64,000 nt of DNA, taken from sequence record PQ511150.1; one strand, given 5' to 3'. Position 1 is the first letter of the stretch; each line of letters opens with the position of its first letter. This DNA comes from Escherichia phage NHEP29. A program made the position numbers and the translations under genes. This document shows, piece by piece, positions 17,308 through 30,049 of the stretch. The notes under the pieces are model-generated. The model searched no databases. It saw only the letters and a list, made by a program, of their open reading frames with translations, and was not told the origin of the DNA.

Positions 17308-17610
17308 TTATTTACCTTTAATTACTTTAGCTGCTTCGATAGCCGCTTGCTGAAGGTCATCCATAGACATACCGAATTTAGAAGCAAAGTTATCAATTTT
17401 CTTTTCGACAGCATTCAAAGGCTTGGCCTGTTTACCTTCATTAGCGCCAGGAAGAGCGAGAATACGCTCTTTGTCAATATAAAGGCTTACAAGTTTCTTA
17501 CGGTCTTTATCGGACAAATCATGAAATGAATGGGCCTTTTTATTTATAGCGGATTCTAATTTACCTGCACTCACTCGAGCTTCAGTAATAAACTCTTGAT
17601 ATGTTTTCAT
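17308..17610 (-). CDS. Internal protein (IPII-like) with capsid-targeting sequence
   Basis: 100 aa beginning MKTYQEFITEA, the T4 internal-protein leader. Confidence 0.8.
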   Translation of the reverse strand: MKTYQEFITEARVSAGKLESAINKKAHSFHDLSDKDRKKLVSLYIDKERILALPGANEGKQAKPLNAVEKKIDNFASKFGMSMDDLQQAAIEAAKVIKGK

Positions 17611-17631
17611 TTTGTTTCCTTGTTTGTTTTG

Positions 17632-17669
17632 ATAGAGTAATTATACCATATTAATACTTAAGCGTAAAC
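17632..17669 (-). promoter_or_regulatory. T4-type early promoter (GTTTAC, 18 nt, TATAAT)
   Basis: Consensus hexamers on minus strand about 30 nt upstream of ATG 17610. Confidence 0.55.
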
Positions 17670-17673
17670 AATT

Positions 17674-17934
17674 TTAAGCTTTACCGCCGGAAATAATTCC
17701 GAAGTTGTTAAAATCGTATTCAATATCGTCAACATCTACTTTAGGACTTGCTACAACATAAGCAATTTCACTACGTTTTGCATAGGTGTTGATTTCTTTA
17801 CCATCGCCACCTAAGAAAAAATACCCATTACGTTTTAATGAGCCAAAGTCTTCCGCATCACCAATGAAAGCTTTAACTTTAAATTTAGGACCTTTAGCAT
17901 CTGCTTCAGTGATAAATTCTTGATACATTTTCAT
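17674..17934 (-). CDS. Internal-protein-like protein with capsid-targeting sequence
   Basis: 86 aa beginning MKMYQEFITEA; rest unlike known IPs. Confidence 0.7.
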   Translation of the reverse strand: MKMYQEFITEADAKGPKFKVKAFIGDAEDFGSLKRNGYFFLGGDGKEINTYAKRSEIAYVVASPKVDVDDIEYDFNNFGIISGGKA

Positions 17935-17940
17935 TTTTCC

Positions 17941-18354
17941 TTAGTAAATTGATTTACCGTAGTATTTGTACCAAGTCGGACGTTGAGCAATTTTTTCATC
18001 TAAGCGAGCTTGACTTATCGCAATGGACGCTTCGGACGGGACATAATTATTACGAAATTCGGCAGGGATGTCGGAAATATCCTGGACAGTCGTGTCCTTG
18101 ATTTTGAAACCACGTTTCAAACATTCAGCGATTAGCTCGATTTGACGTAAACGTAAAAATTCGAGTTTGTCGTAAAAGAACGTTACGTGACCTGTGCCTA
18201 AGATAAATGTTGGAGAGATTTTAAAATCCTTTACACGTTTACCGTTTTGAACATGTTTACGGACTGCACCAAATACGCGTGGTAATTCACGATACTCAGC
18301 CATAAGATGTTGGTCGGTCAGTTCAGAAACAAGTGTTAAATTGATACGAGTCAT
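17941..18354 (-). CDS. denV: Endonuclease V (pyrimidine-dimer DNA glycosylase)
   Basis: [34 protein letters not shown] matches T4 DenV; ATG at 18354. Confidence 0.95.
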
Positions 18355-18371
18355 AATTTCCTCCAAGTAGT

Positions 18372-18411
18372 TGATGAATGTATAGTATCAAAGTCCTTGG
18401 AGGAAGTAAAC
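18372..18411 (-). promoter_or_regulatory. PeSL-like early promoter upstream of denV
   Basis: GTTTAC, 18 nt, TACTAT on minus strand; SD GGAG follows. Confidence 0.55.
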
Positions 18412-18412
18412 A

Positions 18413-18694
18413 CTATTTTTCTGAAGCGCCTGAAATATATTTTTCAAGACGTTGTTTCATCAGCGAGCCGTTCTTAGCGATTTCTTCCGGTTTATCGCAC
18501 ATACGCAACAAGGCTTCAAGCTTAACGATATCACTGGTACGTTCAAATTTGCGAGTATCTATCTTACTAGCAAGTTCAGAAATACGTGCTAATAGACTTT
18601 CAGCTTCAACCAAAGCTGCACCTAGCTTAGTTGCAAATGTGTCAGTAGCTTCGTTAAGAATAGATTCTGATAAAAATTCACTATATGTTTTCAT
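18413..18694 (-). CDS. Internal-protein-like protein with capsid-targeting sequence
   Basis: ATG 18694 in ATGA overlap with e stop; begins [11 protein letters not shown]. Confidence 0.65.
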
Positions 18695-19179
18695 ATATAC
18701 GCTTTCCAAGTTCCTGTTTTAAATGTTGAGATTACGCGTTTCGCGCGATTAGGTGTCTGACGATACCATTTAGATTGGGCTAGATTTACTGCCGCTTCAT
18801 CCCAACGTTTCTGTTGAAGCATACGAAGAGAATTAGTAAAACCAGCGACGCCTGCTACACCCATTTGGAAGACCATATTGACCAATGCACATCGACGAAC
18901 CGCATCTAAAGAATCATATACCGGTTTAAGCTTAGCATTACCTAAGATTCCGCGAACAGCTTTATCAACGTCTTCATTAAATAGCTTTTCAGCCTCATCA
19001 AGGGTAATTGTACCGTTGCATTTACGTCCGATCATTCTGTCAAGTTCAGCTTTAGCTACGGCTAAAGACGGGTTCTTTGTTACTAAATGGCCTATGCCAA
19101 TCGTCCAAAAGCCTTCAGTGTCTTTGTATAAAGTCAGTCTAAGACCTTCGTCATTACGAAGCATTTCAAATATATTCAT
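18691..19179 (-). CDS. e: Endolysin (T4 lysozyme)
   Basis: [27 protein letters not shown] matches T4 lysozyme; ATG 19179 with GGGAGG SD. Confidence 0.95.
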
Positions 19180-19213
19180 AATACCTCCCACGTTTATAGG
19201 AGGTATTTATTAC

Positions 19214-28177: not shown

Positions 28178-28180
28178 GAT

Positions 28181-28255
28181 TGGTGACCCTGGCTGGTTTC
28201 GATCCAGCTACCTATCAGTTATGAGCTGACAGCTCTCCCATTGAGCTACAGGGCC
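28181..28255 (-). tRNA. tRNA with CAU anticodon (Met, or Ile if lysidine-modified)
   Basis: Hand-folded cloverleaf: acceptor GGCCCTG/CAGGGTC, D loop with GG, anticodon loop CTCATAA, T stem GCTGG/CCAGC, 3' ACCA; 3 nt from tRNA-Arg. Confidence 0.7.
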
Positions 28256-28334
28256 TAAATAACTTTCTATTATGAAAGGCACTTTAGAGTACCTTTGGTA
28301 ATAGAGGGTATGAATTAATAATAACACATAATTC

Positions 28335-28850
28335 TTAAAGCAAATCAATCATTTTAACAGTTGGTAAAACAATTTCCTTTTCAATATAAGCAAATTCGAC
28401 ACGTTCAACTACACGCAAGAAATCGTAATCATAATATTCAGAAGCATGGCCGAGAATATCAATAAGGCCTTTGGATACCTCATCACCTTTCACAAAGAAC
28501 AGGTCGAATACACGCGATTCGTCTTCTTCAGATTTATTACCAAGGTCGACTTCAATATCAAAGACCTTTTTAATGAATTCTGGATAAAGCTGGTCTGAGA
28601 ACAGTCCTTCAACCAAGTATTCATAGATTAAAAGTGAGCAATCACTGAACGGTGTATTACCACAGTAACGTTCAGCTTTAGTGCTAGAATGACGACTCTT
28701 AAATTTCTTCAAGAGATATTTAAACTGTTGGAGCTCATGCTCTTCTACACCAAATAATGTTTTGATTTTATAGTTGTCGCCGTCATTTTCCCAAGTAGTG
28801 ACATCAACTACGTAACCTTTAGGAATTGTACTGCCTAAACAAATATTCAT
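28335..28850 (-). CDS. Hypothetical protein
   Basis: 171 aa ORF. Confidence 0.55.
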   Translation of the reverse strand: MNICLGSTIPKGYVVDVTTWENDGDNYKIKTLFGVEEHELQQFKYLLKKFKSRHSSTKAERYCGNTPFSDCSLLIYEYLVEGLFSDQLYPEFIKKVFDIEVDLGNKSEEDESRVFDLFFVKGDEVSKGLIDILGHASEYYDYDFLRVVERVEFAYIEKEIVLPTVKMIDLL

Positions 28851-28854
28851 TTAC

Positions 28855-29145
28855 TCACCGTACCATATTAATGTAATTATATTCAATGCAACGTAATTTC
28901 AAAGGATTCTTGAAAATATCATATTCAAGAGGACCTGATTCAGTTTCAATAAAGAAATCAAAGTTCACACTATTAAATTTGCGGTCTTCCCAAAGTAATT
29001 TAACCTGTGAAGATGAACGGTCGACGTAAACCTTTTCAACTTCAAAATTAGTCAAAATACCATAGTAATCGACTAGTGCTTTAGCTGCACGTTGATCGCT
29101 TTCATATCCATTCTCGACAGATTTTACTTTAGCATAAAGAATCAT
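28855..29145 (-). CDS. Hypothetical protein
   Basis: 96 aa ORF. Confidence 0.5.
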   Translation of the reverse strand: MILYAKVKSVENGYESDQRAAKALVDYYGILTNFEVEKVYVDRSSSQVKLLWEDRKFNSVNFDFFIETESGPLEYDIFKNPLKLRCIEYNYINMVR

Positions 29146-29504
29146 GAGTGTTCCACCACTTCAAAAGTATGTGCATTGACAATCTGATACCAGTCAAAAT
29201 TTTCTTCAGTATTTTTGTAGATTTCACGAAGAGCTTCAACAGTTTTTCCTGTAGCAACAAGATCGTCAATACCGCCAAGAGGATAACAGTCGTAACCAGC
29301 AAACAGAAGAAAATTAATAGTTTCTGTAGGTTCTGGATGCAGAACACCGTTATCGTCTACCACTTCAAAGAAAATGTAAGAAGGAGTACAAGTTTTAATC
29401 CAGGCCCAGGCTTGAGCTGCTGAATCAAATGGTCTGCGTATCAAACGACAATCAGGGTCTTTAGAAGGATTTGCTTCAAAATCCGCATATACGTGATATT
29501 TCAT
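29142..29504 (-). CDS. Hypothetical protein
   Basis: 120 aa from ATG 29504 with AAGGTGA SD. Confidence 0.5.
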   Translation of the reverse strand: MKYHVYADFEANPSKDPDCRLIRRPFDSAAQAWAWIKTCTPSYIFFEVVDDNGVLHPEPTETINFLLFAGYDCYPLGGIDDLVATGKTVEALREIYKNTEENFDWYQIVNAHTFEVVEHS

Positions 29505-29505
29505 T

Positions 29506-29712
29506 TTACTCACCTTTTGCAATTTTATCCATAACGATAGCGATTAAGCCGATTAGAAATGCTACTACCAATGAGATAGAATTTTCTGTTGTTGTCAGTA
29601 GTCCACAAATGAATCCTACAAACATCGAAAAACTAAAAGCCATTGAAGCAATTACTACAGCAACATTACGAATCAGTTCAGCGCGTTTCATTTTATTTCT
29701 CCATTTACTCAT
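29506..29712 (-). CDS. Small membrane protein (2 TM helices)
   Basis: 68 aa, hydrophobic core. Confidence 0.55.
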   Translation of the reverse strand: MSKWRNKMKRAELIRNVAVVIASMAFSFSMFVGFICGLLTTTENSISLVVAFLIGLIAIVMDKIAKGE

Positions 29713-29715
29713 TTG

Positions 29716-29758
29716 TTTTGATAGGACTACTATATCATAGTCCTATCAGCATGTAAAC
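29716..29758 (-). promoter_or_regulatory. PeSL-like early promoter with inverted repeat GATAGGACT..AGTCCTATC flanking -10
   Basis: GTTTAC, 18 nt, TATAGT. Confidence 0.6.
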
Positions 29759-29761
29759 TAC

Positions 29762-30049
29762 TTACAGAAGAGTTTTTGCAATAATTTTAAGCTGAGCTAC
29801 AGAAATATGCTTAGCTTTAAACAGTGCAGTCTCTTCAGCAGGAGAGATAACAATAGTAGCGCCATCTTTCTTAGCAGACCATCCATCCCCTAAGTAAACA
29901 GTACCTTTTACTTCTTCGCCGTCAACCAGACTAATCATTGGTTTACCCTCACGTCCTTTATTTGCTTTAATAACTTCGGAAGTAAGGGTCGCTTCGGTCA
30001 GAGTAGAAACGTTAGCATCAGGTGATATAAATTCTTTATAGGTTTTCAT
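29762..30049 (-). CDS. ipI: Internal protein I with capsid-targeting sequence
   Basis: 95 aa beginning MKTYKEFIS; same length and position (next to 57B) as T4 IPI. Confidence 0.75.
   Translation of the reverse strand: MKTYKEFISPDANVSTLTEATLTSEVIKANKGREGKPMISLVDGEEVKGTVYLGDGWSAKKDGATIVISPAEETALFKAKHISVAQLKIIAKTLL

Follow-up and report, generated by a model that had tools for sequence, protein, structure and literature searches.

The region described here lies in a 64,000-nucleotide (nt) stretch of DNA from Escherichia phage NHEP29 (sequence record PQ511150.1), referred to below as the window, and contains five genes whose products begin with a leader of the type that targets internal proteins to the phage T4 capsid. 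Megablast of positions 17000-30200 matched approximately 1000 T-even phage records, the best being the Mosigviruses AV117, TU01, JS09, HX01 and GADS24 (95-97% identity over 92-99% of the query). On these matches the phage is a Mosigvirus, RB69/JS09-like. Gene order runs parallel to that of T4 (vs.8, ipII, denV, e, nudE, e.2-e.6, tRNA-Arg/Met, tRNA.2-4, ipI, 57B, 57A), and the five leader-bearing genes, like the other genes discussed, are on the minus strand. An earlier note on this DNA (the original prediction) had listed five open reading frames (ORFs) with T4-type leaders, and all were present at the coordinates and with the N-termini it gave. They are listed below with their lengths in amino acids (aa) and predicted leaders; slashes mark predicted cuts.

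17308-17610, minus strand: ipII ortholog, 100 aa, beginning MKTYQEFITEA (phrog_7857, identity to T4)
17581-17610, minus strand: predicted ipII leader, residues 1-10, MKTYQEFITE/A (leader motif)
17674-17934, minus strand: internal-head-protein family member, 86 aa, beginning MKMYQEFITEA (phrog_2667)
17905-17934, minus strand: predicted leader of the 86-aa protein, residues 1-10, MKMYQEFITE/A (leader motif)
18413-18694, minus strand: Ip5-family protein, 93 aa, with a leader-type N-terminus (phrog_3499, identity to ip5)
18650-18694, minus strand: predicted leader of the 93-aa protein, residues 1-15, ending /SILNE/A (two [LIV]xE sites)
26736-27362, minus strand: candidate internal protein, 208 aa, beginning MYTFNEFLAETE (phrog_2280, unknown function, E=6e-57)
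27315-27362, minus strand: predicted leader of the 208-aa protein, residues 1-16, MYTFNEFLAE/TEVITE/A (sites E10 and E16)
29762-30049, minus strand: ipI ortholog, 95 aa, beginning MKTYKEFISPD (PF11634 IPI_T4, phrog_4363, identity to T4)
29993-30049, minus strand: predicted ipI propeptide, residues 1-19, cut after L-T-E19 to give a mature IPI of 76 aa

Every one of the five ATGs is preceded at 4-8 nt by a Shine-Dalgarno sequence (AAGGA-type or GGAAAG). The starts of the ipII, 93-aa, 208-aa and ipI genes agree with the coding sequence lengths annotated in JS09; in GADS24 the annotated version of the 86-aa gene has two codons fewer (84 aa).

Leader motif and predicted processing

The strict leader pattern M[KY][TM][YF]xEF[ILV] occurred five times in the six-frame translation of the 64-kb window, exactly at the five ORF starts and nowhere else, and had no match in any of 200 dinucleotide-preserving shuffles. 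The five leaders are related sequences and not five independent events. In the complete genome of AV117 (168,890 bp) the same pattern was found in six ORFs only, all within the two loci covered by the window, and the window therefore holds the whole leader-gene set of the phage.

In the T4 capsid-targeting sequence, residues 4 (aromatic) and 7 (F) determine targeting and residues 8 (L/I) and 10 (E) determine processing; the first 10 residues are enough to package foreign proteins, and T4 propeptides are 10-19 residues long (PMC9026906). Y or F at position 4 together with F at position 7 was present in all five window proteins (T4 IPI itself has F4), and L or I at position 8 with E at position 10 in four of them (IPII and the 86-, 93- and 208-aa proteins). 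The window IPI has L-T-E at residues 17-19 instead, where T4 IPI has I-T-E. The prohead protease gp21 cleaves after Glu in L/I-X-E, and its predicted sites are E10 in the ipII and 86-aa products, E10 and E15 in the 93-aa protein, E10 and E16 in the 208-aa protein, and E19 in the ipI product. All five proteins thus combine the targeting determinants with a predicted gp21 cleavage site, two features of T4-type internal proteins. Four of the five genes also lie in the classical ip loci, next to e/denV or between 57B and the tRNA block, although such a location is a family habit and not a strict criterion.

It is considered likely that all five genes encode internal proteins of the T4 type, packaged by means of the leader, trimmed by gp21 and injected, with the roles proposed for them below. 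For T4 IPI and IPII, presence in the virion is established (PMC9026906). For the three proteins without a T4 counterpart, packaging, cleavage and injection would follow by analogy with T4.

Four genes of described internal-protein families

The ipI ortholog is flanked by 57B and tRNA.4, an arrangement shared with T4, and this is the position the original prediction had assigned to it. Its product matched the Pfam family PF11634 (IPI_T4) with E=1.4e-50 and 169.6 bits (cutoff 25), residues 20-95 aligning with positions 1-76 of the 76 in the model, which begins just after the predicted cut at E19. The protein falls in phrog_4363, 'internal virion protein', and is 88% identical to T4 IPI over 95 aa. 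The ipII product was assigned to phrog_7857, also 'internal virion protein' (E=8e-55), is 92% identical to T4 IPII over 100 aa, and has a predicted mature isoelectric point (pI) of 9.7.

The bodies of the other three proteins had been described as unlike the T4 internal proteins. Indeed, BLASTP against T4 IPI, IPII and IPIII aligned only their first 11-26 residues. No ipIII homolog was found in the window, BLASTP against T4 IPIII aligning the leader only, and searches of Pfam, NCBIfam and PDB sequences returned nothing useful for the 86-, 93- and 208-aa cargos.

The 86-aa product belongs to phrog_2667, 'internal head protein' (E=9e-21), a family with the same label in the RefSeq records of p000v, STP4-a, Melville and CGG4-1, and its homologs begin MKTYQEFITE or MKTYPEFITE. 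The mature form of the protein is predicted to be acidic (76 aa, pI 5.3). AlphaFold2 (AF2) produced a small alpha/beta fold with a predicted local distance difference test score (pLDDT) of 78.7 from a shallow five-sequence alignment, three of the five models having a mean pLDDT of 52 or below. Foldseek comparison of this model with PDB gave no significant fold match (best E=0.4); the 50 matches listed did not include IPI. In AV117 the copy of the 86-aa protein (record positions 134954-135214, minus strand; MKMYQEFIIDA) has Asp for Glu at leader position 10, a residue that in T4 stops cleavage and not targeting (PMC9026906); if packaged, the AV117 protein would be a natural unprocessed variant.

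The 93-aa product was assigned to phrog_3499, 'internal head protein' (E=1e-46), the label also used for the family in the RefSeq records of ime09, phiC120 and JK45. It aligned over 84 of its 93 residues with the annotated ip5 of T2, PP01 and fHoEco02 (47.6-51.2% identity, E=1e-15 to 2e-17). The ATG of its gene overlaps the stop codon of the lysozyme gene e.

Four of the five leader genes are therefore in families already labelled as internal proteins. T-even internal proteins are highly diverse and have the conserved targeting sequence alone in common (PMC3012670), and because the leader by itself had already served to identify at least ten Ips (Repoila et al. 1994, cited in PMC12373910), these four genes are not new. 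The original prediction of an expanded internal-protein set is borne out by the number of leader genes, but not as a novelty, such diversity being known for T-even phages.

Relatives that are more than 95% identical in nucleotide sequence differ in the leader-bearing genes at the ipII locus. JS09 carries ipII and Ip10 together with a denV fragment and a 36-aa remnant that an internal deletion has left of the 86-aa gene; in GADS24 a different 109-aa leader-bearing protein replaces ipII and is accompanied by Ip10; AV117 has Ip10 in addition. Such differences among close relatives are as expected for an arms-race locus and are an instance of the T-even polymorphism that Repoila et al. reported in 1994. 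The denV fragment of JS09 is a 45-codon duplication upstream of ipII (excerpt L001, 677-814), of which the window keeps a 25-nt remnant at 17177-17201; this remnant looks like the scar of a cassette exchange at the ip locus.

The window set resembles the T4 internal proteins in its leader (MKTY/F-x-EF-I/L-x-E), the L/I-x-E cleavage motif, similar sizes and basic character, the neighbourhoods e/denV and 57B/tRNA, and the two direct orthologs (88% and 92% identity). It differs in having no IPIII, in three cargos that resemble T4 proteins in the leader only, and in its gene order (e, Ip5-like, denV, 86-aa, ipII), with one gene at a third locus after rnaC. With the polymorphic Ips of other T-even phages (Ip4, Ip5 and Ip7, all present in T2; Ip10 of Pol/JS09) it shares unrelated small cargos, a common leader and cassette exchange. 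Identity between the 93-aa protein and Ip5 is 48-51%, and Ip10 occupies the same locus in JS09, GADS24 and AV117.

The 208-aa protein and PHROG 2280

The 208-aa protein belongs to PHROG 2280, which differs from the named T-even Ips in carrying no Ip name in the matches listed. The protein is also larger than the named Ips, with two domains separated by a disordered spacer, and has a conserved late promoter of its own. By tblastn the 208-aa type was found in 138 phage records (Mosigvirus, Dhakavirus, Karamvirus, Winklervirus and others) and was a 'hypothetical protein' in all those listed. T4 and T2 lack it, and certain other Mosigviruses have instead a 157-aa type (RB32ORF132c, the same as RB51ORF140) that falls in the same PHROG (E=3e-60) and aligns over its full length with the 208-aa profile (hhalign probability 91%, approximately 23% identity). 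The 157-aa type occurred in 512 further records, 'hypothetical' wherever the matches listed name a product, and the two types together matched approximately 650 phage records. An exhaustive hidden Markov model search of 1.84 billion representative proteins returned only 14 clusters, and the family therefore appears confined to the phages matched here. The 157-aa type, which is found in many Tequatroviruses and includes g140 of phage fD1, resembles the 208-aa type in lying at the same site after rnaC behind the T4 late promoter TATAAATA and in its leader (MKSYTQFLNE/AVLNE/A); it is shorter and has another N-domain type and a much shorter spacer.

The leader, with one or two [LIV]xE sites, was present in 17 of 17 PHROG 2280 members examined, from Mosig-, Dhaka-, Karam-, Kanagawa- and Tequatrovirus and one Klebsiella phage, and every full-length member examined begins with it. 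Its variants include MKTYNEFLNES (Dhakavirus), MLNFKEFITES (PG7), MKSYTQFLNEA (RB51) and MLKFNEFLAEG. An [LIV]-x-E site lies at residues 9-10 in all members examined but P0027, whose sole site is E15, and most have a second at residues 14-18. Within the 208-aa family E16 was invariant among 9 aligned sequences, and in a larger alignment of 14 its conservation was at least 90%. The leader was kept beside a different N-domain type (P0026, P0027, RB51) and where the C-domain had been replaced (IME523, excerpt L005 1501-2127; P0023; P0025). The last three retain leader, N-domain and Pro/Lys spacer with entirely different C-terminal domains, a pattern of domain shuffling. Persistence of the leader despite domain swaps is what an independent delivery module would be expected to show.

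These results bear on the alternative that the leader of the 208-aa protein, and possibly those of the 86- and 93-aa proteins, was inherited or derived by recombination and has no targeting role, the products being ordinary cytoplasmic proteins, expressed late or early, and unpackaged. Retention of leader and cleavage motif beside a replaced domain argues for selection on the leader itself. The sufficiency of the first 10 T4 residues for packaging foreign proteins (PMC9026906), and the absence of the motif from any other ORF of the related 169-kb AV117 genome, likewise make this alternative very improbable.

The AF2 model of the 208-aa protein consists of a low-confidence leader (residues 1-17), an N-terminal three-helix domain (23-72), a disordered Pro/Lys/Ala spacer (74-113) and a C-terminal three-helix bundle (122-206) with pLDDT above 90. 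In Foldseek searches of PDB and BFVD the matches to this model were limited to relatives of the protein itself and to generic helical bundles, every one with E>0.1. Three candidate relationships were rejected. TonB, the sole NCBIfam match, scored 17 bits against a cutoff of 315 and was compositional, arising from the Pro/Lys spacer. Remote homology to T4 IPIII was rejected because the leader alone aligned (residues 1-26, hhalign probability 26%). T2 Ip4, likewise of 157 aa, was unrelated by inspection of the translated sequence.

Members of the 208-aa family have predicted mature pI values of 9.6-9.9, like those of T4 IPII and IPIII. These values and the long disordered Pro/Lys/Ala segment would also suit a protein that is packaged and serves mainly as a structural or DNA-associated head component, IPIII-like, with the spacer binding and neutralising the packaged DNA or aiding assembly of the prohead core. 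The lack of an ipIII homolog in the window, the slower head assembly of T4 IPIII mutants (PMC9026906), and the 54-71% identity of the C-domain among closer homologs, unusual for an arms-race inhibitor, point in the same direction. However, the gene is accessory, given its absence from T4 and T2 and the presence of the 157-aa type in some other Mosigviruses; PHROG 2280 domains are swapped between relatives; T4 IPIII is itself a GmrSD inhibitor (PMC12373910); and the resemblance to TonB is one of composition only. A mainly structural function is considered unlikely.

The original prediction had noted a late promoter at the 208-aa ORF, and a perfect TATAAATA was indeed found there. This and the other regulatory features near the leader genes are as follows.

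17640-17668, minus strand: sigma-70/early-type promoter-like site before ipII, TTTACG-17-TATAAT with TG (10/12 consensus, extended -10)
19204-19211, minus strand: near-consensus late promoter AATAAATA, just upstream of e (7/8 match)
27398-27405, minus strand: perfect T4 late promoter TATAAATA, 43 nt upstream of the 208-aa ORF, directly after the terminator hairpin
27407-27435, minus strand: terminator hairpin and T-run downstream of the rnaC homolog, at the upstream edge of the 208-aa gene cassette
30084-30113, minus strand: early-type promoter-like site (GTTTACA ... TACTAT) upstream of ipI, read from sequence

Among the five genes only that of the 208-aa protein has its own perfect late promoter. 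The same layout, a hairpin followed by TATAAATA or a 7/8 variant and then the leader gene, was present in the window, PG7, IME523, Biddle_MM4 and RB51 (5 of 5 loci inspected). The hairpin after rnaC is also found in T4 and RB51, and in T4 neither a late promoter nor a leader gene follows it. At the loci inspected the PHROG 2280 gene was always just downstream of the tRNA/rnaC block, and the 208-aa gene occupies a third locus, after rnaC, as variable as the ip loci. From the promoter AATAAATA, e and the Ip5-like gene coupled to it could be co-transcribed late. A further perfect TATAAATA at 17541-17548 (minus strand), within the ipII coding sequence, is oriented towards the vs.8-like gene (16493-17068) downstream of it.

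Several observations weigh against the assignment of all five genes to the T4-type internal proteins, or against their proposed roles. Neither ipI nor ipII has a perfect late promoter within 120 nt, only early-type promoters being present there, and for the 86-aa gene itself there is no convincing promoter; a scan of these three genes for near-consensus late promoters gave weak 7/8 matches only, at implausible positions. In T4 the internal proteins are produced early as well as late. The 208-aa gene is outside the two classical ip loci, and residue 2 of its product is Y, not K. In profile and fold searches the three non-T4 cargos resembled no known anti-defence protein in either fold or sequence. 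The host enzymes facing this phage may also differ from those studied with T4, because the DNA of RB69-type phages contains arabinosyl-hydroxymethylcytosine (arabinosyl-hmC), not glucosyl-hmC. The closest relative, AV117, encodes a D-arabinose-5-phosphate isomerase and a KDO/DAHP-synthase-like enzyme (excerpts L010 54-689 and L008 35451-36443), which is consistent with arabinosyl-hmC modification of RB69-type DNA.

The particle data belong with these points. Protein g140 of Yersinia phage fD1 (157 aa, 98.7% identical to RB51ORF140) was flagged as particle-associated in an LC-MS/MS analysis. The same preparation also flags DenV, lysozyme, NudE, thymidine kinase and approximately half of all gene products, and this support, the sole proteomic evidence, is weak because the preparation is unspecific. 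No virion proteomics was found in the papers searched for Mosigvirus, Dhakavirus or Karamvirus with the 208-aa type, and the supplements of a Jiaodavirus proteome paper contained no peptide strings of the Klebsiella-phage homologs of the 208-aa protein. The unspecific fD1 proteome would be compatible with unpackaged products, as would the missing late promoters at ipI and ipII, the want of a convincing promoter for the 86-aa gene, the frequent truncation of that gene in relatives, and the Asp at position 10 of the AV117 protein, a change reported to block processing. Against such an explanation, a late promoter or its 7/8 variant was present at each PHROG 2280 locus inspected, across genera.

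PHROG 2280, on comparative sequence evidence only, is probably a new family of T-even internal proteins and the one addition to the known picture.

Two stable RNA homologs lie between tRNA-Arg and the 208-aa gene. BLAST against T4 identified rnaC at 27477-27614 (minus strand; 98.6% identity to the T4 stable RNA over 138 nt) and rnaD at 27622-27741 (minus strand; 86.8% identity over 121 nt). Conservation of rnaC is far above that of the surrounding protein genes; the rnaC/rnaD-like stretch has no Rfam coverage and is unannotated in the relatives inspected.

Two further groups of genes with shared C-terminal ends were observed on the minus strand. Five neighbouring genes of the e.2-e.5 block (19895-20386, 21074-21379, 23795-24154, 24133-24558 and 24497-25114) have in common the C-terminal motif F[IV]xE[CI]R, located 7-17 residues ahead of the stop (for example NFIKECRGK, NFIKECRK and RFITECRNLR, each ending at the stop codon). 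The motif had no other occurrence in the six-frame translation of the window, and several of these genes are predicted membrane proteins in the annotation of relatives. Three tandem small paralogs of the RB69ORF136c/137c/139c types (23004-23201, 23211-23483 and 23493-23798) all finish with W[VI][SA]SSxxC directly before the stop codon.

Proposed roles of the internal proteins

In T4, the capsid-targeting sequence of approximately 10 residues binds the protein to the scaffolding core during prohead assembly, and gp21 then cleaves after Glu in L/I-x-E, removing the leader; the same steps are presumed here. The mature proteins would remain in the head with the DNA and be ejected into the cell together with it, so that they would act before any phage gene expression. 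The propeptide-bearing ejection proteins of giant phages (phiKZ, 201phi2-1, SPN3US) are similar in being head-internal, trimmed after Glu at a short motif by a gp21-related prohead protease and then ejected. They differ in their leaders, their S/A-x-E motif, their much larger size and their formation of an inner body, and have no sequence relationship to the proteins described here.

The original prediction had proposed that the divergent cargos act against host defences. For T4 this is already established: each of Ip1, Ip2 and Ip3 inhibits a different GmrSD type IV restriction enzyme, without cross-protection (PMC12373910), and IPIII is functional in the cytoplasm even without its leader (PMC9391042). 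The interpretation is sound and mostly already known, and its functional idea is supported as the working model of the field for T4. Because of their 88% and 92% identity to the T4 proteins, the window IPI and IPII would most likely retain the T4 roles as specific inhibitors of GmrSD-type enzymes. The Ip5-like and 86-aa proteins may be further members of an interchangeable inhibitor repertoire. The 208-aa protein would be a fifth, larger cargo, expressed late under the control of its own promoter. Cleavage at E10 and E16 would probably leave a basic protein of approximately 192 aa that, according to the model, has two small helical domains joined by the Pro/Lys spacer. An anti-restriction role is hypothesised for the 86-, 93- and 208-aa cargos.

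If the leader is a delivery module, the domains attached to it would be specificity modules, and domain swaps among relatives with the leader kept are as expected of such an arrangement. A tentative extension, itself somewhat doubtful as a whole, is that PHROG 2280 in both its 208-aa and 157-aa types is an unrecognised injected family at a third ip locus, carried as a self-contained cassette of terminator, late promoter, leader and cargo, whose two interchangeable helical domains on the Pro/Lys spacer are specificity modules against defences other than the targets of Ip1-3. If this is true, its targets in RB69-type phages might include enzymes attacking arabinosyl-hmC DNA.

The leader also serves as a tool for loading foreign proteins into T4 heads, and the natural variants MYTF and MLxF, together with the dual cleavage sites, show the sequence tolerance of this tool. 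PHROG 2280, annotated only as 'hypothetical' in the records examined and present in the classical laboratory phages RB51 and RB32, could be relabelled. Host immunity encounters injected internal proteins before any other phage molecules, and because all three T4 examples inhibit type IV restriction, additional leader-tagged cargos are ready-made anti-defence candidates with an understood delivery route.

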